Of a stretch of DNA of 64,000 nucleotides, positions 58 to 64,000 are shown in pieces. The notes below the pieces were generated by a model, which saw only the letters and a list, made by a program, of their open reading frames with translations, was not told the DNA's origin and searched no databases. Every line of letters begins with the position of its first letter. The stretch's first letter is position 1. Both the position numbers and the translations under genes were made by a program. Origin of the DNA: Raja brachyura (lineage: Eukaryota); the NCBI GenBank assembly GCA_963514005.1, contig OY740800.1, positions 42,780,001 through 42,844,000 on the forward strand, read 5' to 3'.

Positions 58-98
58 AGTCTGAAGAAGGGTTTCGGCCCGAAACGTTGCCTATTTCC
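58..98 (+). ncRNA. Minimal type I hammerhead-ribozyme motif in a short PLE pseudo-LTR fragment
   Basis: CTGAAGA(61-67)-A-GGGT/TTCG/GCCC helix II(69-80)-GAAA-C-GTT-GCCT. Core residues are intact and helix II has a UUCG loop. Confidence 0.7.
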
Positions 99-261
99 TG
101 TCCAACTAAGAAACCACTTTTCTATCATATACCTTTATTAGAAGTACTGAAACATTCGTTTTTTGAAAATTGACCAGCTGGATTATGTGCTTGCCCTATT
201 TTGCTGGCTCACAGTACAAAGATGGTGTGATTGGTTTCCATGCCAATTAGATTGAAGTCTA

Positions 262-351
262 AAGAAGGGTCTCGACCCAAAACGTCGCCTATCTCCTTCG
301 CTCCTTAGATGCTGCTGCACCCGCTGAGTTTCTCCAGCTTTTGTGTAACCC
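262..351 (+). mobile_element. Short PLE-derived hammerhead-type element (subfamily A), core decayed
   Basis: aagaagggtctcgacccaaaacgtcgcctat...ccgctgagtttctccagc. Flanked by the 14-bp direct repeat TAGATTGAAGTCTA at 248-261 and 352-365. Confidence 0.8.
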
Positions 352-2749: not shown

Positions 2750-3265
2750 TCAAGTCAAGAGAGTTTATTGTCTTGTGTCCCAGATAGGACAATGAGATTC
2801 TTGCTTGCTGCAGCACAACAGAATATTGTAAGCATAAATACAGAACAGTTCAGTTCAATGTACACATAAATAAGCAGATAACGTGCAATAGGCTGTTACA
2901 GTTCAGAGTCTGTTTGTTGGCGAGTTTAATAGCCTGATGGCTGTGGGGAAGAAGCTGTTCCTGAACCTGGATGTAACAGATCTCAGGCTCCTGTACCTTC
3001 TGCCTGATGGTAGCGGAGAGATGAATGCGTGGCCAGGATGGTGCGGGTCCTTGATGATGTTGGCTGCCTTTTTGAGGCAGCGACTGCGATAGATCCCTTC
3101 GATGGTGGGGAGGTCAGAGCCGATGATGGACTGGGCACAACTTTCTGCATCCTTTTCCGCCCCTGGACGCTCAAGTTGCCGAACCATGCCACGATGCAAC
3201 CAGTCACCATGCTCTCTACTGTGCACCTGTAGAAGTTCGAGAGAGTCCTCTTTGACATACCGACT
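2750..3265 (-). mobile_element. Rex1/Babar-type LINE 3' fragment (RT C-terminus plus 3' UTR)
   Basis: Two minus frames give FYRCTVESMVTGCIVAWFGN and AQSIIGSDLPTIEGIYRSRCLKKAANIIKDPHHPGH...LPSGRRYRS...RFRNSFFPTAIRLLN. An AATAAA and a cttga-repeat tail lie at 2750-2770. Confidence 0.85.
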
Positions 3266-3568
3266 GTACCTCCCATCTCTTGAACATTCTCTCTTAATTT
3301 ACTCCACAATGTTGAAACAGTGCATTTGTAAGCCTGACCCACACCACCACCCTATTATCAGGCCTAAACATGTCCTATTCAACTTTGAACTTCTCAGCCA
3401 AAATATTTGAACCCACAATATTCTGCATCTCCTTGAGATCACCGATGAACATTTTGGGATATTGCAAATTTCATTGCAGCATTTTCTGCATTGGTTTTCA
3501 TTATTTTAATTATACAGAATGATAATGAAGAGTCTTTATTTTTAAAAACACTGTTTGCTTGTGTGAGA

Positions 3569-3683
3569 AGTTTGAAGAAGAGTCTCAGTCTGAAGAAGGG
3601 TCTTGACCCAAAACGTCACCTATTCCTTCGCTCCATAGAGGCTGCCTCACCCGCTGAGTTTCTCCAGCATTTTTGTCTACCTT
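3569..3683 (+). mobile_element. PLE-derived hammerhead-type element (subfamily A) with partial 5' duplication
   Basis: ctgaagaagggtcttgacccaaaacgtcacctattccttcgctccatag from 3590, preceded by the partial copy tttgaagaagagtctc. Confidence 0.8.
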
Positions 3684-5612: not shown

Positions 5613-6723
5613 ATTGTACGTCTCAGCTGAATTGGAAATCCATATCTCATGGGATGGAGCAGAACCTTGTATAATTGATTGTCATGTACGTAGCAAGTTT
5701 TTTGAGGGGTATCTTTGTTCAGGGGTACAAGTAAATGCATTCAGTCTATTACCATAATGTTGATGGTCACTTTTTTGGCTTTGATTGCATTTTAATTTCC
5801 TCTGGTCATTTATCTGATATTTAAATGAAGTGTTGTACAGAAAATTATTTAAGAAGTAAATGGAAAATATAATTTATGGCATTTGTTATGGGCAGGCAAT
5901 ATATTAAGATTCAGACCCTTTCTCAGTTCCTTGAAGGAGAGAATATAAATGTGAAAAATTTATTGCCTGAGAGAAGAAGTTATTTAAGCTGCAAAAACAA
6001 AATTGTAAATCTTTGAGAAAAAGGCTTTTAATGTACCCTTGATGCATTAATCTTGCATTCGCATATATACGTCAGATTTGTGAATCGTCCCTGCAGCTCG
6101 TCAGTCTCCAGATAGCAGAAGGGGAATTTATGCAGTCAATGCTAAACAGGAAAACAGGAGCTGTACTATATCAGCAAGTAACAAGGTTCTGGCATGACAG
6201 CTCAGTCTTCCTGCAGCCCATCCAAAATACAATATGAACATGCAAGAAAGCGATCTGAAAAGACCTTCCTATATGCGCCTGTTTCAACATCATAGTTTAG
6301 CCTAAACATGTTGTCAAGACCCCTTTGGTTCCAATCCCACATCCACTTAGTTTCTTGGGAGAAGCAAAAAGATGAAGGAAAATGAATTTTCAGAACAAAA
6401 AATGTTAATAAATCAACTACTGATTAGAGATTGAAATTACACGTACCCCCAATGTTCTAATTTATTTGAAATGCGAAAAGATATTCGGAAATCCTCAAAG
6501 ACATAAAAAATGAACAATTGATTTTATAACTGTCTGGCATCATTTTATAAATGTATTAAGGATTTGTATCTTTTGCTGGATTAACAGTGAACTCTTGATG
6601 GTAAATATGAGCAACTGCATTTGTGGTACCAGTCTCAATACTGAACAGGTACTGGACTAAGTCAGAGGTGGTTGCTGTGACTGCTGCTATCTCAAGTTAC
6701 CCATCTTTCATCTTTGAGACACC

Positions 6724-6820
6724 AGTCTGAAGAAGGGTCTCGACCCAAAATGTCACCCATTCCTTCTCTCCAGAGATGCTGCCTAACCCGCTGAGTTACT
6801 CCAGCATTTTGTGTGTACTT
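6724..6820 (+). mobile_element. PLE-derived hammerhead-type element (subfamily B), core decayed
   Basis: agtctgaagaagggtctcgacccaaaatgtcacccattccttctctccagagatgctgcc...ctgagttactccagcattttgtgt. Confidence 0.8.
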
Positions 6821-7415
6821 TTGTCTTTGAGGTATTGGAGACCAAATTTTGAAGAACATTGCATCGAATTTCTTCAAAGCAGTTTTTCAATATTAATTTA
6901 ACTTTCAGGCGTTCGAATGTGGTTTAATAAGAAATGGGGATAGGACCCTGGTGGAATTGAGCCTGTGATGATCAATTTGCAATTAAAACAACGTATGAGA
7001 AATACTTACTGGGTCTTTTTACATCTGTGGAATGAGAAACAAGATTTAACACTTCACCAACTTTTCGTAAGATTGTTTTATAATTTCAGTATCTGTACAC
7101 TATTTCAAATTTCTCAGGTGTGAAGTATTTGCTTCTGCATTGGTACACTTTCAGTAACAGAGAAACTTTGGTGATCAGATGCTTTCTAAATCATTTTCTT
7201 GTTACAATCAATTTAACCGCCACATATTTGCTTTCAATGGACAAACTACATGACAAAGCACAACAGCTGTTCCCGTGGAACAGGGAAATGTAGCAGATCT
7301 GAAATATAGAACTATATCGAAGCAAACCCATATGCAAAATATAATAATGTCTTCTTTAATACCGTAATTTGTTAACCATCAATTATTAACTTGATTAGAA
7401 AGCCACAGATACCTT

Positions 7416-7683: not shown

Positions 7684-7978
7684 GACAGTGGCTTAAACAC
7701 ATTCAGAAAGTTCTGCCGATCAGTAAAACGTCCCGGGAAATTCTGTTCCTTTAAGCCCGTTATAGGTAGGTGTTAACCCGGTTATCAAAGTCAGTGTAAA
7801 TACACAGCGAAAGTAAGGTGTGTGTATCGCAAACTATAAAACTCAGAATAACCTGCAAATGGCTTCAATAATACAACAATGTTTCAAAAATAATCTTATA
7901 CTGTACCTATAAAACCGCTCAGTAAAAGACATCAATCATGGCCACTATTACAAAGGCATTGAATAAATAAATTCCTCT

Positions 7979-8339
7979 AAGGTAGACAAAAATGCTGGAG
8001 AAACTCAGCGGGTGAGGCAGCATCTATGGAGCGAAGGAATAGGTGAGGTTTCAGGTCGAGACTCTTGACCCAAAACGGCGCCTATTCCTTCTGAAGAAGG
8101 GTCTCGACCTGAAACGTCACCTATTCCTTCGCTCCATAGATGCTGCCTCACCCGCTGAGTATCTCACCCTTCTTCTGAAGAAGGGTCTCGACCCGAAACG
8201 GCGCCTATTCCTTCTGAAGAAGGGTCTCGACCCGAAACATCGCCTATTCCTTCGCTCCATAGATACTGCCTCACCCGCTGAGTTTCTCCAGCATTTTTGT
8301 CTACCTTTGATTTTTCCAGCATTTGCAGTTCTTTCTTAG
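7979..8339 (+). mobile_element. Composite PLE pseudo-LTR insertion: inverted 5' segment plus tandem hammerhead cores
   Basis: Inverted copy at 7979-8062. CTGAAGA cores start at 8091, 8175 and 8214. The 14-bp TSD AAATAAATTCCTCT lies at 7965-7978 and 8340-8353. Confidence 0.85.
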
Positions 8340-8429
8340 AAATAAATTCCTCTTTATCATATTCCATAGCAACACAGAAATTTGGAAGGAAGTCTGATAA
8401 TAAATTCTGTTTATTTAAAGGGAGCTGTG

Positions 8430-8825: not shown

Positions 8826-10019
8826 AGAATGAAATAAAGAAAAGGGAGGACAGATGAAGGAATCTGTTATATACTGTAGCACCCTTAATTTCACTGCTCC
8901 ATATCTGCCCTTTGTTCGTGCCCCGGAACTAACTCCCAGGCCCACACAGCTTCCTGTTACCTCAAGGCCTCCTAGCTATAGCCATTCTGTAATGTTGAGC
9001 AGTTTGCTAGTGGTGACCAGGTCTCTTGCAGCACAAACTGACTTCTCACCTGCAGATTGGCATAAAACAGAAGTTTGGGACTGCAGAAAGTTGTGAAATG
9101 GGAGGAAAAAAAGTTGGATGATTTACAGCAGCTACGAACATTTTCGCTCTTTTCTGGTTCCGACAAAGGGTCTTCAAACTGAAGTTAACTCCACCTCTCT
9201 TACAACAGGTACTGCCTAACCTGCTGAGTGTTTTCAGCATTTTTTGTTTTTATACCAAGAGTATGTATATCTTTCACACTTGGTCCACTGTATTTTATTC
9301 GTCAGCATTTTTACTTTAAGCATTTTCACCGATACGTTCTACCCAAGTTATGCATTTATTGAAAATATTCAATTTCTTAAGAAAAGTACTAATTGCCTCC
9401 TGTGTTGTGCTATGTTTGCTGAATTTTCTGTCACCACTGCTTGAGCTACATTTACACATGCTACTTTCTTCATTCTGTGGGGTTCATTCTGCTATTTTTT
9501 GTGAGTTCACTTTGTCGCTGGCGATTTGGGCGAATCTATTGGTAGAATTAAGTAAAGCATTCTTTTTCTGCTATAACCACAGATGCAAAGTAATTATTTA
9601 ACATATCTATCATGTCCTTATTTTCAATTATAATGTTGCTTTTTGGACATAATATCCACTAACCATCCTCTTTTCCCGAATAAATATAGAAGTTTTCGTG
9701 TTGAATTTCACATCTGCTGCAAGTTTCTTTTCATGGTTCTTTTTATAAATCTCATCTTACATAGCTTTCACTCCCATGTGCTGTATCTTTTTAGTTTTAT
9801 GTTGTTCTTTACATCTTTGGTTATCTGAGACTGTTCATTTTGGCAAGTAGAGCTATTTTCATTTAAAGGTTATAAAATTGTTCTGAAAATATAAAATGTC
9901 TTTTTTTTCCCACATCTTTCCCAATCCTTTGGTCATTTCACACTTTAACAAATTTTCCAGTTGACCATGAACTGTCTATTTTGTCCAGTCTACGTTGGAC
10001 CATGGCACCTTAATCGCAG

Positions 10020-10120
10020 GTTAAAAGAAGGGTGTCGACTTGAAACGTCACCTATTCCATCTCTCCAGAGATGCTGCCTGTCTCGCTGAGTTACTCCAGA
10101 ATTTTGTGTCTGTCTTCGGT
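10020..10120 (+). mobile_element. PLE-derived hammerhead-type element (subfamily B), decayed
   Basis: aagaagggtgtcgacttgaaacgtcacctattcc...gctgagttactccag. Confidence 0.75.
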
Positions 10121-11965
10121 GTCAACCTCAACGGATGTTTTGGTGTTTCTTCCTTTCCAACATTATGTTCAATCATATTCTAATCATAATAAGATAAATG
10201 TTCATCTTATTGGCAATTGCATTGATGAGCTATTAATTTTATGTGGCTAATCATTCATTATTAAATCCAATGTGTCCTGTACCTTTGTTAGTTCAAGATC
10301 AAAATAATGTAGAAAATTGTCTTAAGCGTAAAAGACAATGTGTATCTTTCTGATGAACGTATCTGTTCATTTCAGTCTATGAGGGGGTTAAAATTTCCCA
10401 TTTAAAAATCAATTTGTCTATATTTAAGCAGTTGGTAAAACAAGCATAGAATTTGCTGTCAACCATACTTTGCACAAATATCACATTTCATTCTCCACTG
10501 CGTTAACAGAAGCATTAGCTGTCGGTCAATGCCTCCTTTATTTTAGTGAAGGGAAGAATTCAATCCAAAATGTTAACTGCTCAAAGAAGAAAAATGGTGA
10601 ATTTTGTACCAATATACTTAACCTCTTTGAATTCAAATTCAGCAATTTGTTATTTTCACTTTGTGTAAATTGTCATTTAATATTGAGTCAAGACAAACCA
10701 ACTTGTGTTCTTTAAACCCTAAGTACTTACAGATTTATCGTTCAAGCACGAGTTCTGGCTCAATAGTTTCTCTTGATTCTTCTACATGATGCCACCGTTA
10801 AACTCTCACACTCACCACTGTCCAACAAAACAAAAAGTTGTCCACACATAAAAGTTAATTTAGTCTAAGCAGAAAAGGAAATAATTCTGATTGAGTCGGT
10901 TGCTCTGATCCTTTGGCAGCAATTATTGGGATTGTTGAATGTTTTGATTTTTTTTCGACAAGGGTAGCATCCATTAGATCAGATGCCTTCAATTTGAAAC
11001 AAGAAGCTAGCTTCAGTGAGAATACATCCTCGAACACATAAACAGTCGTTTTTTACTTTGTCACTGCTTGTCTACTTGGAACAAAATATATAAACATGAA
11101 CCTCAATTTTACATTGATTTAACATTTCCTCTGTCTTTACATTCTCATGGAAACATTGAAGTCTCAGTACATTTTTTGGAATGAAATATTTGTATTTCTT
11201 GGATAGCATAGGAATATCAATCAATCAACAAAACTTCAACAATAGGCATTACAATTTTTTAAATGTTTGAAATTTTCCTAATTTTTCCCAAAAAGTGATT
11301 ACACGACCTGACTTGGTTTCGCAGCATCTGAATTCCAAAGGTTCTGGTGGTTCCTGCTATTTAAAGGGTTAAGAACAATTAGTGCATGACACTCCAAGAG
11401 CTATATGTCACCAGTACATCTCCATGAGAAAGAACTTATTTCCTGTTCTTATTACTATTATTTAATTACTGCTCGCCCACAAACATTAACAAATTGAACC
11501 ATAATCTTCTGTCGGAGACGAGACGTGCACTCATAGTTGATGTACCCACTGGGTCGGAATTTGTTGTTTCCAAATGATATGCATGTTGCCAAATTATTCT
11601 AGTTCATGCCTGTAGCCACCACCCTCCCAAACCTGGCCTCAGCTAGGAGAACCAAGCAGCATATTAGGAATTACAAAGATGTACAACCACCCTTTCATTT
11701 ATGCCTGAAGTCGTGGGCCTCGGGTGCAGGGACATTTTGCACCAGGTATGAAGGGGCAGATTCAGTAACGTACTCTAGAATTTCAAGGCTTGTCGGCCGT
11801 GAGGTAGCTAATGTTGATCTCATTTTTATTAAACGTGTCCTAGATCTTAAAGTAGACCATGTAAATTTAGTTATGTTTGGATCATACTCTCAAAGGCTAA
11901 TTGTCCATGTTTCCTCAAAGGAATCTCACTTGTAAAGAACAATGGCCGATCACAGTCTTATTTCT

Positions 11966-12023
11966 AAACGTCACCCATTCCTTCTCTCCAGAGATGCTGC
12001 CTGTCCAGCTTTTTGTGTCTATC
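11966..12023 (+). mobile_element. Short PLE-derived fragment (subfamily B)
   Basis: aaacgtcacccattccttctctccagagatgctgcctgtcc. Confidence 0.7.
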
Positions 12024-12626
12024 ACCATTTGAAATGACTTGTTTAATCAGCTCCTGTTGATCACTCTCAAATCCTGGAGCAATTTGGTCTTTGACCTTTT
12101 GACCCTCTGACTCATATGACCACTGACAGTTGTGTCAAACTACAACCTATTCTTGAGCTTGATACGTTGTCATCACGGTCACATAGGTGGTCACATGAGG
12201 AAATGGTTACTAACCGAAGAACAAATCAATTTAAGACCATTTTAATTGTGCAGCCAAACCTATTCAAACAGTTAAATTGTATCAAATTGCTGTCTTTGAC
12301 AATGCATTAATTGTTTCATCACATAAATCATTTAATCTGCATGTTAATTCCTTTCCCAAGTGTTATCAGACTGCTTGAGACAGTTTCATTCAGGACATTA
12401 TAATGACTGCACACAATTGCAGCAGTTTTCTCAAAGGACGATTGCAATTCGGAATTCTTCGCCACAAACGGTCTTCGGGGCTAAGATTATGGGATGACTT
12501 AATCTATGTATGTTAAAAAGAATGTGAAATGTTGTAGCGAGATGGTACCAGAGCAAATATGTTCATATAAAAAACAGAACTACTTGAGAGATGTCATTCT
12601 TCTGTGTCCCAGTTTCTTTCAATATG

Positions 12627-12698
12627 TCAAGAGTCATTTATTGTCATATGTCCCATAATGGAACAATGAAATTCACACTTGCAGCAGCACAACAGATA
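12627..12698 (-). mobile_element. Rex1-type 3' tail fragment, interrupted by a Helitron
   Basis: tcaagagtcatttattgtcatatgtccc...aacaatgaaattc...gcagcagcacaacag matches the tail at 2751-2822. Confidence 0.65.
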
Positions 12699-13235
12699 TC
12701 TATATAACTAAAACTCTCATCTTGTTTGTGTGTATGTATATGTGTGTGTGGGTGCGTGTCATCTGGATACAATCAGCTTGATTCTCATTTCCTTACAATT
12801 GCTAGGCCACAGCCTTCCCATTTTCACACATTCTACTCACATTTTTCCCCACGAGGCGATAAACTCGTGGGGATTCCCGTCGCATTCCCACCTATATTTC
12901 CAAACTTTTTAACCCTTTAAAGTTTTAAAAGTAGCCTGAAAACGCACTCATTTCGGAAAAAAAACTCCAGAGTGACGTCACAATGGACTTGCAAGGCAGG
13001 ATGGGACACTCCAGGAGGGAGGGCCACTGCAGCGCACCCGTGACGTCACAATGTGCTCGCGAGGCAGTAGGGGGCACTCCGGGATGGAGGGCCACTCCAG
13101 CACTCGTGCAGCGGCTGCGGGCGCCCAACATCTGGTGGCACCGCATACTCAACATACCGCATACCTCAATCAGCCAACATATTCCAGATATTTTTACCTT
13201 GCTCAAAAAAAAAATCAGTTTTAAGACCTTTAACA
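12699..13235 (+). mobile_element. Non-autonomous Helitron, 5' part (3' end not found)
   Basis: Starts A|TCTATATAACTAAAACTCTC and is homologous to the reverse complement of about 47065-47390. TGACGTCA occurs at 12973-12980 and 13041-13048. Confidence 0.75.
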
Positions 13236-13246
13236 TATGAATCCTG

Positions 13247-13388
13247 TTTTCAAGAGAGAGTTAGATTTAGCTTTAGGGCTAAAGGAATCAAGAGATATGG
13301 GGGAAAAGCAGGAACTGGGTACTGATCATATTGCTGGCTCAAAGGGCCAAATGACCTACTCCTGCACCTATTTTTCTATGTTTCTATG
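13247..13388 (+). mobile_element. CR1 3' tail fragment
   Basis: ttcaagagagagttagat...ggaatcaagagatatggggg...cctactcctgcacctatttttctatgtttctatg. Confidence 0.85.
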
Positions 13389-14566
13389 AATCCCTCCGTT
13401 GCCCAACCTGGCTCACCATGGTCATTTCTTGCACACACATGTCCTTTATGTCATATTCTTCTAACACTGACAACGTATTTGTCCCCTCGTTCTTTCACTT
13501 CATTGTCAGCAACAGCTTTTTCAACAAGTACAGTCTGATCTTTGCAGCCTTATTCTGCAAACCTCTCTTTCATTACCTCTCCCTGATTTCAAAAGCTTTT
13601 TAAAGATCTTTCTCCACAGCCACGCTTTCGATTACTTTAAAAGCCTCTGGTTCCTTCTCTACCCTCCTGTTTCTTGTCAATTTTTTAGTCCATCACTTTG
13701 TAAATAAAAATGAAACGTTATCTTGTACAGGACTTTAACAGAAGTGTGAGTTAGTTAAATAGTTATTAGTAATCTTGGAGTTTCTTGAATTTTCACTTCT
13801 TCAAAAAAACTTATTTACATTTGTATGTTCACAAATTACTGCATAAATGGGCAAAGCAACTGCAAATACAGTGTATAAATTACTGTTAGTGTAACATGAG
13901 ATATGATGTATACAACTTTTATATTACTTTCTGGTAGTAATATGTGATCAAACAAAACGTTACTAAAACTTGAAACTTGTGTTGGAATAAAGGATCAATT
14001 AATGAGAAGAATGGAAGCATTTTACGGCGAAAGTAACGTTTTCTAAAGGTGAACTGCTAGGTATATCTTTAAAGCATTCCTCACCTCCTGTACAAAGAAC
14101 CAGACCTTATTATTTGTGTTATTATGAAGGGCTGCAGAGGGCCATTCTGACTTTTTTCCTTCCATTCATAATGTTTATGTTCATAGTCACCTGGATGTCA
14201 TAAATTCACCACTTTTAAGTTATTGTAACAGGTTTTTTTGATTGTGTAAGAACAACTGTGTTCATAACGTTCACATTTGGATTTACTTTAACTTACCTCC
14301 CCCTTCTGTAACTTAGGACAAGGCATTTTCAAGTTATAATCAAGCATTTTTAATATTTTTCATTAAAATGCATTGATTTTTAATTGTCCAAGATTCTGAC
14401 TCTTGAGTGACTTGCTGGTTGGCAACTAACGCCGTGACTGTGTTCATGAAGCATGAAAATGTGAGAAAATTCCTGGTATCTCTTTCCCACAATATAATTA
14501 ATTAACAGTATGGGCAGCATTGTTTAATTTGATGTACATACGTGACCAAAAACAACATTGTCGTAT

Positions 14567-14660
14567 TTGAAGAAGGGCCCTGACCTGAAATGTCACCCAT
14601 CCATGTTCTCCAGAGAGGCTGCTTGACCCACTCAGTTACACCAGCATTTTGTGTCCTTTT
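14567..14660 (+). mobile_element. PLE-derived hammerhead-type element, decayed
   Basis: tgaagaagggccctgacctgaaatgtcacccatccatgttctccagag. Confidence 0.7.
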
Positions 14661-14994
14661 TTGCTTATTAATATCAGTAATGTTGCTATCAATATGAAGT
14701 AACACGTTTTACTGAGAAGCAATGTTAAGGACCATTTTAATTTCGGCTTAATTTCCATTCATCCCTTCCTCTTTACAGGGTTTGGATTAAATTCCCTGGA
14801 ATAACAGGCACCTTCTGATACTGTATGAGCAGCCATGCAACAGGAGTTGGCAAATCCGTTCATTGAGCCTGCTCTGCCATTGTTTTTGCAGACTACTAAT
14901 TGCACTAGGACGTGTGATAGGAATGAAATAGGGTGCTCTGAGCTAAATAATACTTGTGGTACAGGAGAATAAAAGTCAGCTGTTGGACAGGTAA

Positions 14995-15120
14995 ATGGTT
15001 GGCATTGGTTTAGAGGGAGATGTGCCAAATGCAGGCAGGTTGGACAAGGTAGATGGGCATCTGGGTTAGTATGGACAAGGTGGGCCAAAGGGACTGTTTC
15101 TGTGCTCTTCTACTCTACAT
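14995..15120 (+). mobile_element. CR1/SINE 3' tail
   Basis: ggtttagagggagatgtgccaaatgcaggcagg...gggccaaagggactgtttctgtgct. Confidence 0.7.
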
Positions 15121-15489
15121 TGTTGTAGAGAGAGAACACAAGGCAATTGTGTCCAAATCTTTTGGATTGAGGCGGAGGAAATCCTTGTAATTCAACCACT
15201 AATAGCTCTGCTCATTTTGCCTTTAGGTAAAATGTATCTGTTTCTGTAGTCCTGGCATCTCTCTCAGGTGGTCCAAATTAGGTTGGATTATTATTCATAT
15301 AAAACTATCTTGAGTGCCGTAGACTGTAAGACTTTGAAAATAAAATGGTTGACAATGTATATAATTCGAGAGCGAGAAAGAACAGAAACGGGCCTATTAA
15401 AATATGTCCATTAAAACATTGTTCCAACATGTTCACACTATCCCAAGCCAACAAGCGGCCTATTGGAGCCATCCAACCTGATGTAATCT

Positions 15490-15676
15490 GTTGCTGGCCC
15501 TGATTTGTCCTGGTCTTTTCTTGCTTCCAGTTCCCCCCCCCCCACCTACAATTCGTCCGAAGAAGGGTCCCGACCCCAAACTTTACCTATCCGTTTTCTC
15601 CAGAGATGCTGCCTGATCCGCTGAGTTACACCAGCATTTTGTGTCTATCGTTGGTATAAACCAGCATCTGCAGTTC
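15490..15676 (+). mobile_element. PLE-derived hammerhead-type element with upstream pyrimidine-rich pLTR part
   Basis: ccgaagaagggtcccgaccccaaac at 15557, then gatgctgcctgatccgctgagttacaccagc...ccagcatctgcagttc. Confidence 0.7.
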
Positions 15677-16844
15677 ATTTTCAGGTGTTCCATTAATATG
15701 TCAGTTCCTATTGTCTGGAATTCTCATTCTTAACCTCCTTTTCTCTCCCCTCCTTTAGGGTGTTCTTTGAAATATTTATCTGACTAATTATTTGTCATCA
15801 GTTCATCTTGCGTGAATCAGTGTTCAATAATTTTTTGATAATTACTACAATAATGATGGTAAATAATGTAGGTTTCCCTGTGAATTATTTCTGTTACTTT
15901 TTGGGGGTAAGAGTGTTGTGAAGTTTTTTTTAAATAATTCCAAGAAATGGTTTCTATTTGCTGGTCAATAGAAACATTGGCTTGATGTAACATAGCCTAA
16001 AGTGCAAATTCCACGGCGTATAGGTTAGAAGAGCAGAGAAAATAAGAATAAACATATGACGGGCATCGAGCTTGCCAAAAGAATAATTATATTTTACTAC
16101 CAATAAAGCCATGTATTATTTTAAATATGTAAAAACAAACAAAAGCAAAGTTATAAAACACAAAAGATTGGCAACAATCAAAATATACATTAAAAATCCC
16201 TGGCTAATGAGCATTTTTAAAATAAATCCAGTAACATGGATTCCTTTGGTATACCTCAAATTATTTATTCCCAAAATAAACATATGTTACCAATTTCATT
16301 AACTTCCCCTGATAATTTATTCTAGCTTGATAGGGTCCTGTGGAAAAGTAGTTCCACCTGACTTCATCTTTTTAATATTTAACTACATATATGAATTCCT
16401 CACAACACGAAACTTGGATAAAGCTCGGATCAGCTTTATTAAGTTTCCTTAATAATTTTTAAGTCTTCCATTTGGTGAGGTCAGCACTTTTTCCAGAAAA
16501 TAAATTTCCATAATCAGTTTTTTAATTCCTGAAACGCATAAAAGTCGTTGCAAGAGGATAAAAGTATTTGGAGCAGCAATTAATTAGCATTCATACAACT
16601 TATTTATAATTGGTTCTCTGTTCCCTGCTGAGACAAAACACACATTTGTTTCAAGTTTTTCAAGTAAGGAAAGTATCAAGGTTCTCTAATTTACTACACT
16701 GCATTTTAAACATGTACTCTGTCTTTTGGTTCCAGTTGTTTAAAAAACGCATTCACATTGAAAGTCCATAACAGTTTACAGATTAGTTTATTGTCACGTG
16801 TACCGAGGTACAGTGAAAAGCTTTGGTTGCGTGCTATCCAGACA

Positions 16845-16995
16845 CTGGAGGTCTGAAATAAAAACAGAAAATGCTGGAAACCTATTTTATTTTTGTGGCT
16901 GAGTGTTAACCCTGTTTCTCTTTCTCCAGATGTTGCCTGACCTGCTGAGTTGCTCCAGTATTTTCTGCTTTTGTTTCAAACTTCTAGCATCTAAT
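16845..16995. mobile_element. Old PLE pseudo-LTR relic with inverted arrangement
   Basis: aaaacagaaaatgctggaaa followed by tgcctgacctgctgagttgctccagtattttctgct. Confidence 0.55.
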
Positions 16996-18995: not shown

Positions 18996-19130
18996 GTTTA
19001 AGAAGGAACAGCAGATGCTGGAAAATCGAAGGTAGACAAAAGTGCTGGAGAAACTCAGCGGGTGAGGCAGCATCTATGGAGCGAAGGAAATAGGCAACGT
19101 TTCGGGTCGAAACCCTTCTTCAGACCCGCA
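18996..19130 (-). mobile_element. PLE-derived element (subfamily A) with intact hammerhead core
   Basis: Minus strand reads gggtCTGAAGAagggtttcgacccGAAACGTTgcct (about 19092-19127). The 14-bp TSD ATGACAGGCTAGGT lies at 18982-18995 and 19131-19144. Confidence 0.85.
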
Positions 19131-20692: not shown

Positions 20693-23220
20693 AAATCTTG
20701 TGCCAGGAGCAAATTTCTGGAGTGCCACTAAATAGGCCTGAAATAAATATTATTGCTTCCCTCTGGGGAAAGTCCATTTCCAGTGGTGTATCTCTGAATA
20801 TTAATAGTATTATTCACTAGAGTTTCTAAGAACATGGAAACTGAATCACTGCATAAATTCTGGCATTTGTTTAAAGGTATTTTGCTCTGAAGATAAAATG
20901 TTTTAAAACTTTCGGAAAACGATTTGGAATAGCTGAAAAATAGGTTTTTTTATAAATCTAGAAATACTGTACCACATTTTGAGGTTGACCATAAGACGAT
21001 ATGAAATCTCTGGAGACAGTACAATTGAGTACATAATTTATCTGCATCCATTTGCTTTTTGCATGCCTTTGTGATTTATGTTCTCTACTTCTTCCCCCTC
21101 TGTATGATTCTCCTAGTTTATAGGAATAGGAGATTTTTTTCAATTGTACAATTCGGCCAAATAAATCATTCATTGCTTCAACATTGTGTCCACAACTGAG
21201 CCTTGCTTCAGGAAAATGAAGTGGGTAGGAGGTTTCCAATTGAGTTGAATAAGCAGATGGGATCTGCTGTTGCAGAGTTTATCATTGCAGATGGTTTAGT
21301 TTAATCCCAAGCCTGCACTATGTTTGAACCACATCATTTTGCATACATTCAAAACCATGTGCATGTGGTATCTTTTATTCCTCATCCCCAGGTTTGCTTG
21401 CTTGATAATATTTCATACAGAAGTATTAAGTAATCTGATCCAGCTTCGATTTCTCTAATCTTTACTTAGTTGACAACTGTTATAAAGACAGTACCAAGTG
21501 TAAATATGAGCATCTGAAGCCTACTGGAGAAGGAGAAACTTAACTGAGTTTTTAATCTTGTGTTGTGCAGTTAGTTAGTTGCTCTGAACCTCTCAGTGTC
21601 TGAGTTATTTAAATGGTACTAAAGCTTTTTTAGTGCATTGAGCATTGTCAGTTTCTAATAAACCTGCTGTGTTATATGAAAACTGTATTTGCATCTATCC
21701 TAAATTGGTGAAGCTGGAGTCTGTTTGATGCTCTGAGCAAAATTGTTTAACTGTTGTAATGTGTTTTGTGACAGATTTAGATGACGGTTAAAAATTGATA
21801 GGAGCATAAGTTCATTTTAAAAGGCCATGGGGATACCAAAGATGATAAATAGATTGTTATATAGTGTCCTCTGACACTAAAGGGTTTGGATGTTGCACCC
21901 AAAAATACCGGCTGTTTTTCTCAACAGAATTGTGGCAGAGCAGACGTCAGGAGCTTCCATTTCTCACCCTGGCTTGTATTTAGCATCTAACAGAGTCAAA
22001 GATGCTGTAACTTGGATGTTCAGAGATAGTGGATTGGAATAACAATTTATTTTTGCACCAAGTGAGGAAAAATTGGCACTTTAACCCTATGGCCTCATGC
22101 TGGCAAAGAAGCTAATCTTCTATTAGATGGCAAAACAAAGTGTGCCATAATTAACGGGGTGCCCAAAGGTCTCCAGGCTAGAACTCCATCACAGAAGCCT
22201 GAATGGGCCCGATATCTGTTCCTCAGAAGATGTCTATGTTCCTTGCATTTACTTTACTGAGCAATAAGGATGCGAGAGAGTTAAGGGACTTTTACAGAAA
22301 CGTATACGTCCGCCCTCTCTTGAACTTGGCTCATATTCGGAATATGCCTGGACCTTGCCTGGTCATGCCCAATCATAGTTTTACACCTTGGGTTGGAACA
22401 TGGAATTTTTGGATCCCTCTCAAATTTGCTGGGTTAATTGCTGCAATCCTGAATGATTTCCCAGAGGAAATTCAAGATATTTTTGTAGTCGTGCAGAGGG
22501 AATGTTGCCTTCTATGAGGCTCAGGCTTTACGTGACCTAAAGAGTGCATCACGCTGGGAGAAAAAACATCTCAATCACAAAGCTACGTTCTTCCCCACAG
22601 GATCCTGTTAAAACAAAAAATGACAAGCTCTTCTCTGAAATTATCCTTTGCAGCTGGGCCAGGGCAAGGTGAGGGATTCAATCCCATGATTTAGAGTTAA
22701 AGCTGGATTTTTTCAGCTGTATGCAAATACTTATAGCCCTTCAATTTAGCATGATGCAAATCAAAATATTGTTGTTATGCCAACAAGTAAATGAAAAATA
22801 TCTGTCGAACTGTGCTTCAGTGATACACCCCTCGACAGCCCCTCTGACAGGTTGAAAATATAGCCGCGTCTGTACACCGATCTTGTATAAAAACAAGCAA
22901 AGGCATTGGCTGGAATGGTAGCTGCAGATGGTCCCAACATTCCTTTCAATTTTACTGGTGGTAAATTCCAGTATATAATATCCTGCAAGGTAAATGTAAG
23001 TAAACTTTTGATGGGGTTATAGGGCTCTGCCTGCATGGCTGCAAAGTCATTTATGAAGAAGATAGACACAAAATGCTGGAATAACTCAGCAGGACAGGCG
23101 GAATCTCAAAATTTATGAATTTTGGCCAGACATTCAACATGCTTCTACATTTCCAATTTTTTAATTACTGCCTTATTGATATGGGATCATACCAGTGGAT
23201 GTTCACAGTCAAAATGATTT

Positions 23221-23313
23221 GAAGGTAGACAAAAATGTTGGAGAAACTCAGCGGGTGAGGCAGCAACTATGGAGCGAAGGAATAGGTGACGTTTTGGGTC
23301 GAGACCCTTCTTC
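23221..23313 (-). mobile_element. PLE-derived hammerhead-type element (subfamily A)
   Basis: gaaggtagacaaaaatgttggagaaactcagcggg...gggtcgagacccttcttca. Imperfect TSD TCAAAATG(A/G)TTT at 23209-23220 and 23312-23323. Confidence 0.8.
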
Positions 23314-26300
23314 AAAATGGTTTTCTTACCTCGGGTAATCTTATAATGTCAGCGTCGTGTAGGATGTTGAAGGTTGTGCCCTTGTATAATGCCTGTGCCA
23401 CACACCAGGGGTCTTCCTGCTTATGGTCCCTGGCATTCCATTCTTCTAAACCTTACTTAAAGGAAATTAAGTACATTAGTAAACATGAGAAATGTTCCTA
23501 TTTCCGAATGCTTCTCCTCCTCCCCGCCAAAGGTCTGATCCTGTAGTAGTTGCACCTTGAGTTCTTCATTCCTCGTAATGGAATTCTGACGTGACAGTCT
23601 GCCAATGATTAGCTGTTTCAACTTTCTAAACCAGTCTGACATTTATAAGTAATGCCACCCAAGGACAGTAGAACTGGTTAACATCTGGCTCATACAAGCG
23701 GAAGTCCTTTCCTGCCATCACCCAAGGGAAAACATAAGAATTTGTGTTGTTACAATATATATGACACTTGACTCGTGATTCCGTTGACTTGACTCTGACT
23801 CTTGACTAATTCAGTTAAACAGATGTTCTTCCTCCATTCTATATTAATTTTAACCAACTTAGTTTGAACATTCACTCTCATGACATTTCTTCATTATATT
23901 TATACCTTCCTAACTTCCCTTTGTCTTAGTTAATCCTATTTCTCTATTTACTGCTTCTTTCCAAAGTAAGACACCTGTCTTATCCCCATCACACCAAAAT
24001 ATGTTTATTCTAATAACTTCCAAGATTTACACAAATAACTTAGAAAATACTTAATATCTTTGATCAGGTCATGAGTGAGTTCATTTATAATATTATGTAA
24101 AGTTGATTATTTAGAATTATTGGCTAAGATATTCTTGAACAATTTAAAAAGGATGTTAATGTGGCGTTTTGTAAAGCTTGGACAAGTTTTAGGTGTCCAG
24201 GTGTGAGGAATGTATGGCCTTTAACAGTCACTGTTGTGTTAGAGTATTAGTTGTGAGATGAAAAGGATCTTGTACAAAGGACTCTCCACTTAGACTAGCC
24301 AAAACAAATTGGCAAAAGTAGTGTGGACAACCAGATCATTCATGACCATATCTTGGGCAAATGTATCATGGATTCAACCAAGTACATAACATAGCCTGTG
24401 CTTGGTTGGTTCTATGATATAGTCTTGAGAAACATCTTGTAGGTTTGCATGTTAGGTTAAAAAAAAATGAAATACCGGGGATACTCATCAGGCCAGGCAG
24501 CATCGATGGAGAAGTAGACAGTTAATATTTCAGTTAAGCAGAATTGTAAAGGTAGGAAAATAAGCATGTTGTAAATTCCGGAGAGTGCGAGAACACATAG
24601 GGAATATCTGTGATATATGTATTTAGTGCCCAGTTTAGGGAAATGAACTCTTAAGATTTTTCCAATCTTTGAAGCCCCCATAACTCTTCCATGAGTATTA
24701 AAGGCTTCAAAGAGAAAATTGAATACACTCTAAAATATGCCAAACAAAGTGTCAAGAAACAACGATAATAAGATGCTTGCAACTCTGTTTAGAAGATAAA
24801 TATCACTCCATATTTCCCTTCAGTAAGCTCTTATTTCATTACTGCAACAAATTAAATGAGTCTGCTTTCGATATTTCCTTGGCAATGAAAGCCATATGCC
24901 TAAAAATTGATCTTTGGTTGGTAGTGCTAAATGTACTCTATAGAATCATGAGCGCATTACATTGCCTCTGAAGTCTTTTCCTTTGAAGTCAATGGAATGA
25001 ATTTCAGAGGACGAATGCAATATGCTGAATTGACAATGTAGCATGTTTATTGCTATCAATCGGTGAACTTTGTGGGCAATAGTGTGTTGCTTAAGTTATA
25101 ACAAGCCCAATGCCACATTGTAGTTCTTAACTACTTGTCTCATTAGAGTTGCATTTGGTGCTCTTTCTGAGCTGTCAGTTATTTAACTTCTGGTATTATC
25201 CAGATTTACTGGAAAACTTGTTACATCCACAAATTACAGCAGACTGATATTGAAATAGTCCTGGCAAGTCACAATTATAGAGATGGGGCTTCCAATTTTG
25301 AAGAATGACTATTGCAAAAAATGATGGGAGGGAAATAAAAATCAGTTGTACAATTCAACTGTGAGTATGAGTATATGTGCACGTGATCCCAGTCCTAAAT
25401 GCCTGTGATAGCAATCAGAAAGGGATTGGCTCAGATAAGAGAAAGGGATTGGCTGAGGTAATCTACTACAATGTATTCTGGGAAACTGGGAATGATTCTT
25501 TGCCTTACCAACTTCCATCGTTGACAAACTGCTTGGAGCAATGCAGTACCATCTGGAGGGAATGTTAAACAGCTGTGGTATATGCTTCTAATAGTCTTCA
25601 TTTGCATTCATTCATGCCCTTCAGACAGATCCCATCCTCCTGCTGCATAGGAACTCATTTGAAAAATCTCTGCCTGCTGTTTTGAAAGGGTATTTCTTGC
25701 ATCAGCCAATTCACCTTCCCCGAACATTGTTTCCCTGTGGTAGACAAAAATGCTGGAGAAACTCAGCGGGTGAAACTGCTGGAGGGGTTACGTTGCTCTG
25801 CTCCGCCAAACTGCTGTTGCGATTTTAATCCCTCTGTCATCTCAGAACGCAAGCAAAGGAAGGCAGGTATGACCTGCTGTGAGTTGGCCTCAGAAAATGG
25901 GTGACAGTGAGCAGCATTATGACCTGCAGCCAGAAGACCGGTACCATCATATTTTGAATTGGAAAGAAAATCAGGCCTTTCAACTTTTTGTAGAATACTT
26001 TAAAACAAGGCAACGCAGATTTCTGCATGTGTGCCCACTGCGGACACACACACAAGCCTCCCCCTTCCCCATCTATATCTTCACACACACCTGTCAATCT
26101 TCTCTATATAATATTGCGTAATTGAATAACTTTGAACGACAGATGTTGGTCAGCAAAACCTTTGACAGAATTATTTTACCAATGTAATCAAATGATAACC
26201 AAATGTTGTAGGAAACAGCTTTACATTAAACATTGTGCACTGGCAAAAACATTTGGACATACTTGTCTAGATAGAACATTACAAAAGATAAATAGACAAC

Positions 26301-31669: not shown

Positions 31670-31803
31670 TCTCTCGCCTTACCCTGGATCCGATATCAGT
31701 ATAATATAATGGAAACTGCTGTGAGAAATCAGCAGGTATCTGACTCAAACAGCAGCTCCCTCTTGACCTTTAACCTACACCTTTATTATGCAAACCAAAA
31801 GCA

Positions 31804-32141: not shown

Positions 32142-32299
32142 TGGTACACCAGTTCAATAAAAACTCACGGCTTTTTGACAACCTAAGAATGCATGGTAAC
32201 ATGCAGATAACGTTAAAGGCAGTGGGCATTACAAAATTAATTGTGAAGAGTGAAGTAAATGGAAGCACCAGCTAACGATGTAAATTCTTTCAATGTAAG

Positions 32300-32398
32300 A
32301 TCTGAAGAAGGGTCTCGACCCGAAACATCACCCATTTTTTTCTCTCCTGAGATGCTGCCTGTCCCGCTGAAGTTACTCCAGTATTTTGTGTCTATCTT
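32300..32398 (+). mobile_element. PLE-derived hammerhead-type element (subfamily B)
   Basis: tctgaagaagggtctcgacccgaaacatcaccc...gtcccgctgaagttactccag. Confidence 0.8.
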
Positions 32399-33554
32399 CA
32401 AAGTAAATTTGTATGCAGGTGATTGAGTATTACAACACATGACTCCCATTATTTGCTGCTGCAGTGATGAGGACACGGCATTAAGCATTTATGAGAATAA
32501 CAGTTCCACTTATCTGTCCAAGGCCCCATCCTAATTTGGTTAGTTTTGTAACATGCATAGAAACATAGGTGCAGGAGTAGGCCATTCAGCCCTGCAGGTA
32601 GAGAGAAGGGGGCAAGTGTCAAATGAGTATGGTCAGTGGCTTTAAGAACATTTTGCGTACGTGCATGCAGTAGGAAGTCCAGATCAGCATCTGCTCCTGG
32701 CTGAATCTAGATAAGGCAATCACCCATCATCAACAGAGTTAAGTGTACCAAAGCCCGCCGGTCAGGCTCTGCAAGTTATTCATTACTGCGGTAAGCTTTC
32801 TTTCATATAATGCTGTAGAAAATATGATTTGTCTGCTTCAAAGGAACTTTTAAATGTTTGTAGTTGTGGCTTTGTAGGAACAGGGTGGACAAATAAGCCT
32901 TTTTTTCCTTTCTATTATTCATTATTTTTCAGGTCTGAATTGGGTTTTTTTTTTACTTGAGTGGGGTATAAAAATTTGCCCAGAAGATCAGGGATGAAAA
33001 TAAGCACTTCTGGAAAGAGATGTGGAGCGAGGTGAATCGGGCTTGATTGGGGTCAGTTCAGGGAGATAGAACCGGATAAGGAGTTACTTTGGTGAGGTTC
33101 CAGTAGAGTACACACACCCGTTACCCTCCGCCCCCACCATCCCCCTAAAAACCCAATTATATATTGCAATTTAATCCAAAATTAATTCCAGCCAATTTTG
33201 AAAAAGCTGCAATTGATCTTTTTACTAATATGTGTTAAACAACAAAAATAAGAACTTCATTAGAAGGCAGCAAATAGGTTATATGGCCTTGGGTGTAGTG
33301 ACACAATAGTGGCAAATTAGTTTGTGATTATGATGATTTTGCAAGGAAAACATTACGATGAGTATTGACTAACAATGAACAATTAACAGCTGGATTATAG
33401 CAATCCTATTTACTGGTTTCCAGAGTGTTCTAGGCTAGGAGCTCATTTACTTATCAGGCCTGTTATTGTAGAGAGGAGTAGCATAAATTGAGCAAAGAGG
33501 GGGAACAAAAGGCAAACAGCTAACATTGAAACTCCAAAATAAGTTTATTTAAAG

Positions 33555-33840
33555 CTTAAAAAGACATAACGTGTTAGTGTAACTCAGCGGGTCAGACATC
33601 TCTGGAGAACATGGATAGATAACGTTTCAGATCGGCACCCTTTTGCAGACTGATGTGGGGGAGAAAGCTGGAAGAGACATGGGGTCAGGACAAAGCCCAC
33701 AACAATCAGCCTGAAGAAAGGTCCCAACCCAAAAGGTCAACAATCCATGTTCTACAAAGATGCTGCCGGATCCGCTGTGTTATTCCAGCCCTTTGTGTCT
33801 TTTTTTGTAAACCAGCATCTACAGTTCCTTGTGTTTCTTT
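33555..33840. mobile_element. Inverted (head-to-head) PLE pseudo-LTR pair
   Basis: Minus copy at about 33560-33700 and plus copy from cctgaagaaaggtcccaacccaaaagg at 33710. Confidence 0.7.
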
Positions 33841-36914: not shown

Positions 36915-37320
36915 TGTAGGCATTCCTGCTAAGGCCAGCCTTTTATGCCCAGGAGAAGGTAATAGTGAGCCCCTCAGTCAGTATATTTTTCTTCATTCAA
37001 GCAATATGGGCTTTGCGGCCTGAGCCAGCATTTAATTGCCCATCCCTGACTGACCTTGAGAAGGTGTAGTGAGTTGCCTTCTTAAAATGCTGAAGTTGGT
37101 GAGGTAAGGGAGAGCGTGTTGTTCAACCCAAAGTGTAGCCTTACCCCTTTTGCCTTCATAGATGCTGCTTGAAGTCAAACGAGGGTAGGACCTACTCAGT
37201 AAATGGCAGGTCTCTATGGAGTGTTGTAGAAGATAGGTATCTTGGAGTGCAGGTACATAGTTCCATTAAAGTGGCATCACAGGGAGAAAGCATGGTCAAC
37301 ATATTTTGTGCTGTATGACT
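36915..37320. mobile_element. Cluster of old CR1-type fragments
   Basis: gccagcatttaattgcccatccct...ccttgagaagg tail twice, and an RT-like piece ggtaggacctactcagtaaatggcagg...cttggagtgcaggtacatagttcc. Confidence 0.55.
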
Positions 37321-38071: not shown

Positions 38072-38320
38072 GTATTTAAGAAAGAACTATAGATGCCGAA
38101 AAATTGAAGGAAGACAAAAATGCTGGAAAAACTCAGCGGATGAAGCAGCATCCATGGATAGAAGGAATAGGCGATGTTTCGGGTCGAGACCCTTCAGACA
38201 GATGTCGGGGCGGGTGGGAAAAAGGAAAAGGTGGAGGCCGTAGGCTTGTGGGAGAGCTGGGAAGGGGAAGGAGGGAGAAAGCAAGGACTACCTGAAATTG
38301 GAGAAGTCAATGTTCATACA
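38072..38320 (-). mobile_element. PLE 3' end: ORF C-terminus, pyrimidine-rich spacer, decayed hammerhead, pLTR tail
   Basis: Minus 38317-38288 encodes MNIDFSNFR*, which resembles PLE GIY-YIG C-termini. It is followed by tctgaagggtctcgacccgaaacatcgcc and the subfamily A tail. Confidence 0.75.
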
Positions 38321-61983: not shown

Positions 61984-63745
61984 AAAATGTAATCCTTGTT
62001 CTGAAGAATCTAATTTTTCAAATTTCAGATTCGTTGAAAACCTTACTTTAGATGTTGTAAATTTTGATTGCTGAAGGAAATGCAGGAGGAAAAGAATCTT
62101 CAGATAGCCTTTTGAGTAAACCATGGTACCTTGTGATCAAATTGTGCCTTTTTAACGAGGAATTGTATACAATTGGCATAGCCAAAATCTATAGTGCTAC
62201 TTGGCCTGCAATTTGACTATATGACACCAAATTGTCGCAGAAATAACAGCAGGCAGAAAACCGGTACCACCCAAAAGTGCACAAGACGCAATAAATATTG
62301 TGAAATTAAGTGTTACATTTAGATATTTAACACAGGTTTAGATTCCAATGTTAATTGTTAGACTAAATTGCTTCTATTTCACTGGTTATAACCATAGTCT
62401 TGATGCAAAACATATTATTGATCAAATAGTTACATCCTACAACTAAACATTAAGAGATGAGATGAGGTGGCTGGCTACCAACGTATTGAGAATATGTTTT
62501 CTCTTGAGCGGAATTTCACAACAGACACTGCACGGGAAATGTAGAAGTTGAGTCAATGAATATTTCAGCTCAGTGGAGAATAGGTAGAAAAGTTGTATTG
62601 AGAGCAGGATCATGGCCTCTGAGTGGCTTCGGCTCAAGGGCCAGATGGCATTCTCCTGCTCTGAATTCTTACATTGTTATGTTCATGATTTAGTGGACTA
62701 GTTCAGAGATTCTTTATGTCTTCCATTTTGGGAATGAAACCCAAAGGCCCTTTGTGTGAAGAGGCATTAGTGTCATTAAAAGTCATAGCGCATGATAGCA
62801 GACATTAGCTTTAAACATATTGGAGGATGGCCACAGTATTTAGATTGGGTAGGAAAAGCCTAAAGATGGAAATTTGTTTTTATATATTATCAATGTTAAA
62901 ATATAAATAGAACAGAGAAATGTGAAAATATTTGAGTGGTTATGTATGGCTATTTGAATGCAGCTTATTAGATGGTTGACTTGGATATTTGAGGAATAGA
63001 TATGCTGTTTGTGAGGGCATCTTGTAAGCGAGAGGGATGGTTGGGGGAATACTGAGGTGAGTTTACAACTTAAGGCTATGCCGAGAGAGTGTCAGAAGAA
63101 AAACATGGATGAATACATTTAAAGGAATATTTTAATGTCTTCCATGTCATTGAATACAGCGAGTAGCTCACAGACAAGGAGGAAATACCAGAGATGCTAA
63201 AAATGAAAAACAAAAACAGGAAACTATCTTAAATTTTCAAACTTAAAATCGAGATTGGAAGGCTGTAATGTGCTTAGTCAGAAGGCCATTAGGAACACTG
63301 GGGCAATGGGAGTTGAGAAATCCAAAGGATTAGAGCCACCAGCTCAGGGTTAGGGTTGGAACTGAAGGTTCTGGAATATGTGAGAGAGAATTGATGTAAT
63401 GTGAGTGGGAGACTGAAAGTGTGTCTTGTTGCAGTTCCAGTCCAATGCTGGTGCAACATGATTTTTGCAAGGTAATTAGAAAGAAGCAGTTATGATGGTG
63501 GACGATTGAAATGCCAGGCCACACAGATTCAAAATGTTGGAAAAAAGTTACAAGGGATATACGAAGTAAAAAAACATCCTTCTTTAGTCAGAGGTTAGAG
63601 TCCGAAACTCACCATCTGTGGGATGGTGCGAGTATCATCCATCATTCCAAAAGGCATTGGGCAAGCACTTGGGACGGAAAAATTTACAGAGCCATGGGAA
63701 AGAGCTGGGGGAATTCGAACTGCGCTCGGAGCCAGTATGACCAAA

Positions 63746-63840
63746 GATAGACACAAAATGCTGGGGTAACTCAGCAGGACAGGCAGCATCTCTGGAAAGA
63801 AGGAATGGGTGACGTTTCGGGTCGAGACCCTTCTTCAGAC
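63746..63840 (-). mobile_element. PLE-derived element (subfamily B) with intact hammerhead core
   Basis: Minus strand reads gtCTGAAGAagggtctcgacccGAAACGTCaccc (63840-63807). Confidence 0.85.
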
Positions 63841-64000
63841 AAGGTATAAGACCAATGGGTTTAGTCGTCTCCTGCTTGAGCTGTAACAATTCTATCACCA
63901 TACAATACTATCCAAGACAAAGCAGTGCTCTTGGTTGGCTTCCATACTTTAATCATTTGTGTACTCTACGACTAGCACACTGGAACCTTGTATTACCAGG

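Follow-up and report, generated by a model that had tools for sequence, protein, structure and literature searches.

The window analysed here, a 64-kb stretch of Raja brachyura DNA, carries many dispersed copies of a short repeat that is very probably the end of a Penelope-like element (PLE) with a minimal hammerhead ribozyme (min-HHR). Searching at E<0.02 with a profile built from 13 copies of the same 64 kb recovered 34 pieces, which resolve into 27 insertions, one every 2.4 kb, covering 2,901 bases or 4.5% of the window (Table 1). The reversed window gave two profile matches, both at E>=0.49, and none at E<0.02. An earlier sequence-only reading, which had described a dispersed repeat of about 100 nt in at least 20 copies, is borne out; its estimate of about one copy per 3 kb was somewhat low. 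The pattern CTGANGA-N8-20-GAAACGT occurs at exactly four sites (61-87 and 8091-8117 on the forward strand, 19097-19123 and 63812-63838 on the reverse strand), and a match appeared in 0 of 100 shuffled windows; scans for the exact pattern in viral contigs, metagenome contigs (two scans) and prokaryote genomes gave 0 matches. Alignment of the 19 better core-bearing copies separates three subfamilies, A, B and an older C, besides older decayed pieces; A and B had been recognised from the sequence-only reading, which had missed C. Single copies diverge by 2-17% from the majority of their own subfamily and come in two lengths, about 95-100 nt or about 125-135 nt.

Table 1. Insertions of the repeat family, and parts of them, by window position
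Feature	Position	Strand	Remarks
Short A-type copy, UUCG loop, GUU triplet, intact core 61-88	58..99	+	Predicted cut after 88; end about 11 nt past cut site
A-type copy, core broken (G5, G12)	257..351	+	14-bp exact TSD 248-261 / 352-365 overlaps 5' end (microhomology)
A-type copy, G12 lost by CpG decay	3569..3683	+	18-nt partial tandem of own head at 3569-3586
B-type copy, G12 lost	6719..6823	+	8-bp exact TSD 6711-6718 / 6824-6831
One complex insertion	7979..8337	both	Inverted piece 8066-7979 (-) head-to-head with three tandem + cores; tail on + side only; 14-16 bp TSD 7963-7978 / 8338-8353
Tandem cores of complex 7979..8337	8091, 8175, 8214	+	G.U at 10.1-11.1; U16.1 lost; palindrome lost, respectively
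Old decayed copy	9161..9250	+	Profile E 3e-7
B-type copy, core broken	10021..10135	+	Profile, alignment
B-type piece, start inside core, internal deletion	11965..12029	+	Profile
C-type copy, core broken	14566..14666	+	Profile, alignment
C-type copy, about 140 nt pyrimidine-rich upstream sequence, tail	15417..15688	+	Possible 10-bp TSD, left edge chosen by eye
Old piece without core	16917..16994	+	Profile
Best-preserved long copy, intact core 19123-19096 (GUU), tail to 18996	18996..19130	-	14-bp exact TSD 18982-18995 / 19131-19144
5' arm of 8-bp stem	19068..19075	-	Stem common to all three subfamilies
3' arm of 8-bp stem	19013..19020	-	Inside optional tail, about 19028-18996
B-type piece without core, start at 5' arm of stem	23056..23107	-	9-bp exact direct repeat at edges
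A-type copy, core broken	23221..23316	-	12-bp TSD (1 mismatch) overlaps 5' end
Old piece	24469..24533	-	Profile
A-type piece without core	25735..25779	-	Profile
B-type copy, 13 core letters kept, palindrome lost (CA)	32299..32396	+	10-bp TSD (1 mismatch)
C-type head-to-head inverted pair (33649 -, 33711 +), about 60 nt upstream sequence between	33554..33837	both	Tail on + side only; 10-bp exact TSD
Old piece	37123..37172	+	Profile E 0.003
Longest copy, A-type (copy 38195): frame end, pyrimidine-rich spacer, core with 3-nt deletion, tail	38074..38319	-	Present in four of four organisms compared
Last nine codons and stop of parent frame, MNIDFSNFR-stop	38288..38317	-	Likely GIY-YIG endonuclease end
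Pyrimidine-rich spacer, starts GT, ends CAG (intact copies) at foot of helix I	38199..38291	-	Possible intron
Very old piece	49674..49771	-	Profile E 0.015
Old piece	50025..50123	-	Profile
Old head-to-head inverted pair (50974 -, 50972 +)	50888..51043	both	Tail on + side
Old piece without core	52314..52359	+	Profile
B-type head-to-head inverted pair (52627 -, 52628 +)	52583..52761	both	Tail on + side; 12-bp TSD (1 mismatch)
C-type piece without core, with tail	57919..57978	+	Profile
B-type copy, intact core 63838-63811 (GUC)	63745..63846	-	9-bp TSD-like repeat (1 mismatch)

Other repeats share the window. A near-full-length CR1 LINE (27718-31678, reverse strand) retains an esterase (GDSL-like) ORF1 with pieces of the endonuclease and reverse transcriptase (RT), and a minisatellite at its 5' end (31804-32133) consists of 17.4 copies, 99% alike, of a 19-nt unit. 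The 5'-truncated CR1 copy at 60562-61973 (forward strand) is 99% identical to one at 27.7-29.1 kb, implying that this CR1 family has been recently active. The 3' end of another LINE-like reading frame, without Pfam match, lies at 2903-3351 (reverse strand), and we take it to be of the L2/Rex type; another GC-rich repeat family is present in two or three copies (12626-13388, 20053-20222 and 46706-47380). Two Rfam microRNA matches, at 7999-8163 and 46.5 kb, are really an inverted repeat and a low-complexity tract, and a Pfam match to COX6A (E 0.05) was taken as noise. Neither a simple predictor nor a Pfam search of the best 100 of 1,118 open stretches found host exons. Between 59 and 16917, eleven consecutive PLE-end insertions lie on the forward strand, followed by five on the reverse strand in 19124-25779. 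Such a strand run may mirror unrecognised host genes; as no host exon was found, it cannot be tied to a gene.

The majority sequences of the subfamilies display the core CUGANGA / GAAA / UH with an extra base after A9, the pair G10.1-C11.1, a palindrome at 15.2-16.2 and no loop 3. In the accessible text of Cervera and de la Pena (2014, PMC4209133) the min-HHR of metazoan PLEs has the same core, extra base, G10.1-C11.1 pair and palindrome and likewise no loop 3, so that these traits of the minimal type I hammerhead, to which the repeat had been assigned from its letters, are present; we also agree that helix III could form only between two copies. According to the same source, these motifs sit in PLE terminal repeats and are mostly dispersed singly; the Xena, Poseidon and Neptune elements of fishes are among the carriers. 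The helices are shorter here, helix II having 4 bp and helix I 2 bp at most, against 7-8 and 4-5 bp in the Schistosoma motifs, and the only published min-HHR given there with a 2-bp helix I is a D. virilis variant (PMC4209133). That text names no cartilaginous fish among min-HHR hosts, and the motif of the window family has no match in two of the three supplementary files of PMC4209133 or in the available supplement of PMC8557442. None of the 30 Rfam matches at E<=10 in the window is to a hammerhead family, as expected for a motif without helix III.

Few of the cores are whole. All 13 core letters and the CG palindrome are kept in only 3 of the 19 aligned copies (those at 61, 19123 and 63838), which are separated by 19 and 45 kb and not all on one strand. 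The four cores that had been called intact are all exact pattern sites; the one at 8091, however, has U for C11.1, which leaves a G.U wobble at the conserved 10.1-11.1 pair. Alignment confirms the CUCG, UUCG and CCCG loops and the U.G pair at 72/77 that had been noticed before, as well as the predominance of CpG decay among the damage, which also accounts for most one-sided changes in helix II. This helix is 96% paired in the 19 copies, and 76% of cells are paired in helix I. Two of the tests named in the sequence-only reading as able to refute its claim gave results. The first, covariation in helix II, went against it: the 19 copies hold no compensatory, double-sided change and the measures are no better than those of shuffles, in a comparison of low power among closely related copies. 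The second, conservation of the core relative to its flanks, was borderline in its favour: subfamilies differ at 1 of 21 columns in the core and helices II and III versus 17 of 72 elsewhere (p=0.064), which hints weakly that the source elements were under selection. Within single copies, by contrast, non-CpG decay affects 16 of 204 core sites versus 83 of 1,167 elsewhere (p=0.66). Once inserted, the cores decay neutrally, at the pace of the remaining element sequence.

The copies bear the marks of PLE insertion: target-site duplications (TSDs) or microhomology, an optional tail, head-to-head inversions, partial tandems and heavy 5' truncation, hallmarks listed in the available parts of PMC8557442 and PMC3846280, where the tail measures 30-40 bp. 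The TSDs are 8-16 bp long and mostly AT-rich. Repeats of at least 10 nt flank 7 of 21 insertion units, as against 19 among 400 sites drawn at random (p about 4e-5). This count excludes one further unit, whose edge was hand-picked, and unit edges were fixed from alignments with the copies already in view. The 3' ends that the TSDs define fall at +93..97 or +124..133 from C3, two classes that correspond to an optional tail of 30-38 nt. In PLEs the tail marks two internal starts of reverse transcription (PMC11167929, in the part available). An 8-bp stem is kept, without covariation, in six long copies from all three subfamilies, and its 3' arm lies inside the tail. All four inverted pairs are head-to-head with a tail on one side only; partial tandems occur at 8063-8253 and 3569-3603. 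A single duplication of 14-16 bp surrounds the whole complex 7979-8337, which implies that one event made its inverted piece and its three tandem cores. As far as PMC4209133 and PMC3846280 describe them, Penelope of Drosophila virilis and its counterpart in Adineta vaga share the short TSDs (8-10 bp there), an optional tail (31 bp), head-to-head inverted pLTRs and microhomology at 5' junctions. Unlike for those elements, the window holds no full-length copy.

The edge at which the copies begin is sharp. Upstream spacer is carried by only 3 of the 20 core-bearing pieces, and the starts of the other 17, at 11 simple insertions, 3 inversion junctions and 3 tandem junctions, lie no more than about 10 nt from C3. 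The same edge appears in public DNA data. Region 14001-24000 is represented in twenty runs from seven organisms, and for 37800-38600 we aligned the contigs of four runs from four organisms, about 20,000 contigs per run. Per run, 672-831 contigs diverge from the element some 10 nt upstream of its core and continue into mixed sequence. This edge could be where the RT stalls on meeting the C-rich spacer, where the element RNA begins, a splice acceptor or the start of a self-propagating short element. None of the 34 pieces starts at the cut site (model position 31), the nearest starts being 23 and 37; the template was therefore most likely uncut, and uncut RNA also served as template in vitro for the anole PLE (PMC11167929, available in part). 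Five core-less pieces (23107, 50972, 52627, 25779 and 57919) begin at model positions 47-60, at the 5' arm of the stem, as if copying had stalled there. Both A and C occur with upstream sequence, while B has no extended copy in the window. A pyrimidine-rich stretch at 41370-41560 (forward strand), missed by the profile, resembles the upstream spacer of C and may have a core remnant at its end.

The longest copy, the A-type insertion at 38195 (reverse strand), leads upstream through the pyrimidine-rich spacer into the end of a reading frame, MNIDFSNFR-stop, at 38317-38288. In all four runs, 172-203 contigs per run extend past 38319 with the same sequence, and this extension, read by eye, continues in frame without stops and completes the motif L-G-[ST]-x-x-P-x-G-[LM]-N, a few codons before the stop. 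The endonuclease end looks like the P-x-G-[LM]-N type, and the element may belong to the Neptune clade. In the available supplement of PMC8557442 the full motif closes the GIY-YIG domains of the Naiad and Chlamys PLEs; against the Naiad examples, 5 of 10 residues are identical, which is a motif match and not a profile match. The remnant is too short for the latter: 9 of its residues lie in the window, and about 10 more were taken by eye from a loose-end consensus (agreement 0.62-0.71). To judge from this motif, the frame end is likely that of a PLE GIY-YIG endonuclease and the stop so close behind would place the nuclease at the C terminus, its position in canonical PLEs. Database searches recovered no match to an RT or GIY-YIG domain, and the 64-kb window holds no long copy. 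Regular expressions for RT and GIY-YIG motifs found no PLE frame in its six frames. The 66-residue frame that follows the stop in copy 38195, used as a protein query, returned 29 candidates, of which none reached E<=1; this is weak evidence. The insertion 38074..38319 is present in all four organisms and is thus older than their split. The frame end reaches a summed depth of 0.67-1.06 million in the four runs versus 7-13 in the flanks, a measure that is not a copy number, and it also joins at least two other spacer types (contig loose ends at 38274 and 38277). Its own spacer, 38199-38291, is possibly an intron in the pseudo-LTR. The intron of D. virilis ends at the foot of the 2-bp helix I (PMC4209133 and PMC3846280, both available in part), and the GT...CAG spacer may do likewise. 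Contigs that skip 92-102 nt of the spacer were discounted as support for an intron, as the spacers of other subfamilies would look the same.

We consider it highly probable that the copies are 5'-truncated right ends (pseudo-LTR with or without the tail) of endonuclease-bearing PLEs, and that cleavage by their hammerhead would require either a dimer or the protein of the element. Truncated ends of autonomous PLEs most likely explain both the dispersed, TSD-flanked copies and the A copy linked to a reading frame. The protein of such an autonomous element would nick AT-rich DNA, and reverse transcription would start inside the element RNA, immediately ahead of the 3' arm of the 8-bp stem or immediately behind it, giving copies without or with a tail. 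The RT would copy through the uncut ribozyme and mostly stop within about 10 nt upstream of the core, after which microhomology or fold-back would seal the end of the insertion. Ribozyme activity would likely matter only in the tandem RNA of the parent element, as a dimer or assisted by protein, and the inserted fragments would be decaying passengers. Much of this scheme resembles the Poseidon PLE of the green anole, PAc (Frangieh et al. 2024), which, in the accessible portion of PMC11167929, also has a hammerhead in its pLTR, AT-rich targets, an uncut RNA template and protein-assisted cleavage. Two RT start sites bound its tail, one of them in a stem-loop about 120 nt downstream of the core, a distance similar to that seen here. 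The PAc frame starts at stem II, whereas the ATG frame that follows the core here is, judged by eye, closed by a stop in both B and C.

The best-surviving alternative, which we still regard as unlikely, is that the short copies form a self-propagating non-autonomous family, SINE- or retrozyme-like, derived from a PLE end, with its own short transcripts now serving as templates for the PLE protein. Such a family would be expected to have a sharp 5' edge, as 17 of 20 pieces and the contigs exiting upstream of the core do, and non-autonomous PLE derivatives have been described (10.64898/2026.07.22.740005 and PMC8557442, in the parts available). However, A and C occur with upstream sequence, A even with the frame end, and each of the four runs contains this frame end in great abundance, joined to several spacers. 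A tRNA-derived SINE was rejected: ARAGORN found 0 tRNA genes, although a decayed head could be missed, and no tRNA family is among the Rfam matches. We rejected a non-LTR retrozyme by definition, too, as this needs two consecutive intact units and our copies are single with TSDs; the window contains no tandem units with two consecutive complete hammerheads, its sole cluster (8063-8334) having three damaged cores. The non-LTR retrozymes of Li et al. (2026) share the type I hammerhead, the origin from a PLE pLTR and the dispersal of monomers over chromosomes, and were found in the one cartilaginous fish sampled. They are nevertheless tandem units, each with a complete hammerhead and with a mean of 363 bp in that fish, against single copies of 95-135 nt here (10.64898/2026.07.22.740005, available in part). 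The non-autonomous, retrozyme-like family proposed from the sequence alone thus finds no support in dispersed TSD-flanked copies, one of which, of type A, is joined to a PLE-endonuclease-like frame end.

The same reading had suggested that host transcripts may carry latent self-cleavage sites. In its stronger form, the intact copies would be working sites, acting as dimers, in trans or helped by the PLE protein, and either purged from genes or kept in them, which seems to us very unlikely. A few points agree with it: the 3 intact cores; the 11 insertions in a row on one strand (p about 0.005 in a post hoc runs test that excluded inverted pairs); the depletion of retrozyme copies from Xenopus genes (10.64898/2026.07.22.740005, in the part available); and the protein-assisted cutting of the anole hammerhead (PMC11167929, likewise partial). 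Against it, the core is not protected from decay and the intact cores are far apart on different strands; as to the strand run, both CR1 pieces of the same 17 kb lie on that strand as well, and no exon was found to orient a gene. Predicted folds also speak against it. In a 190-nt context, helix I has a probability of about 0, and that of helix II is low, at p<=0.01, in all but one of the 6 best copies. Several single-copy folds pair the core with the pyrimidine run behind the cut site, the ACGU self-duplex is predicted at only -1.7 kcal/mol, and the fold energies of 7 copies are no better than those of shuffles (z -1.5 to +1.0). The predicted misfolding of the best copies makes latent cleavage of host RNA by inserted copies unlikely, and with nearly all copies damaged or predicted to misfold, host RNAs would rarely be cut. 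In agreement with this, as far as the accessible texts go, published min-HHRs do not cut as monomers and are weak as dimers (PMC4209133; review PMC6765202), the anole ribozyme needs the protein of its element for cleavage and no reads end at its cut site in anole RNA (PMC11167929), and 8 of 9 Xenopus dimers did not cut (10.64898/2026.07.22.740005). It is hardly credible, finally, that the likeness to a hammerhead is incidental and the stretch kept as a promoter, splice acceptor or protein-binding site that never cuts, for even if the absence of covariation, the 2-bp helix I, the unremarkable fold energies and the borderline core conservation fit that idea, the core letters, the extra base after A9, the G10.1-C11.1 pair and the palindrome stand in the exact published order at the site expected in a PLE end.

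The repeat reaches a very high copy number, as the summed contig depth over 37800-38600 shows (1.6-1.9 million on the core versus 7-13 in the flanks in the four runs, without being itself a copy number). If the window were typical, the genome would hold several hundred thousand insertions, and some 75,000 cores would be intact, figures that rest on 64 kb, three intact cores and a genome of ~1.6 billion letters (contig letters, run X1). For comparison, about 4,000 hammerhead motifs have been reported in the coelacanth and about 9,000 in Xenopus (PMC4209133, in the part available). A bolder version of truncation from autonomous PLEs, tentative and rather doubtful, would have the sharp 5' edge mark the 5' end of the element RNA, be it a start site or a splice acceptor, with priming in the front pseudo-LTR of uncut RNA mass-producing fragments of 95 or 130 nt. 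Intact cores would then number on the order of 100,000, and some could undergo cleavage during expression of the PLE protein and so be purged from the sense strands of genes. If true, this lineage would carry about ten times the vertebrate counts given in the accessible text of PMC4209133.

The link between PLEs and hammerheads, the dimer rule and dispersed single motifs are all published, and our finding is mostly one of ordinary repeat content. The literature searched, with Repbase, Dfam and most subscription papers lying outside it, describes neither this family nor its ribozyme from any skate or shark, and the family may well be catalogued already in a repeat database. PLEs have expanded in whale shark introns (10.1101/443036, as far as available). 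On the in vivo role of the PLE hammerhead, PMC8557442, in its accessible part, asks whether it merely parasitises PLEs. With one insertion every 2-3 kb, the skate family offers the numbers to ask whether intact sense cores are purged from introns, whether any copies start at the cut site, and where reverse transcription of these elements starts and stops.
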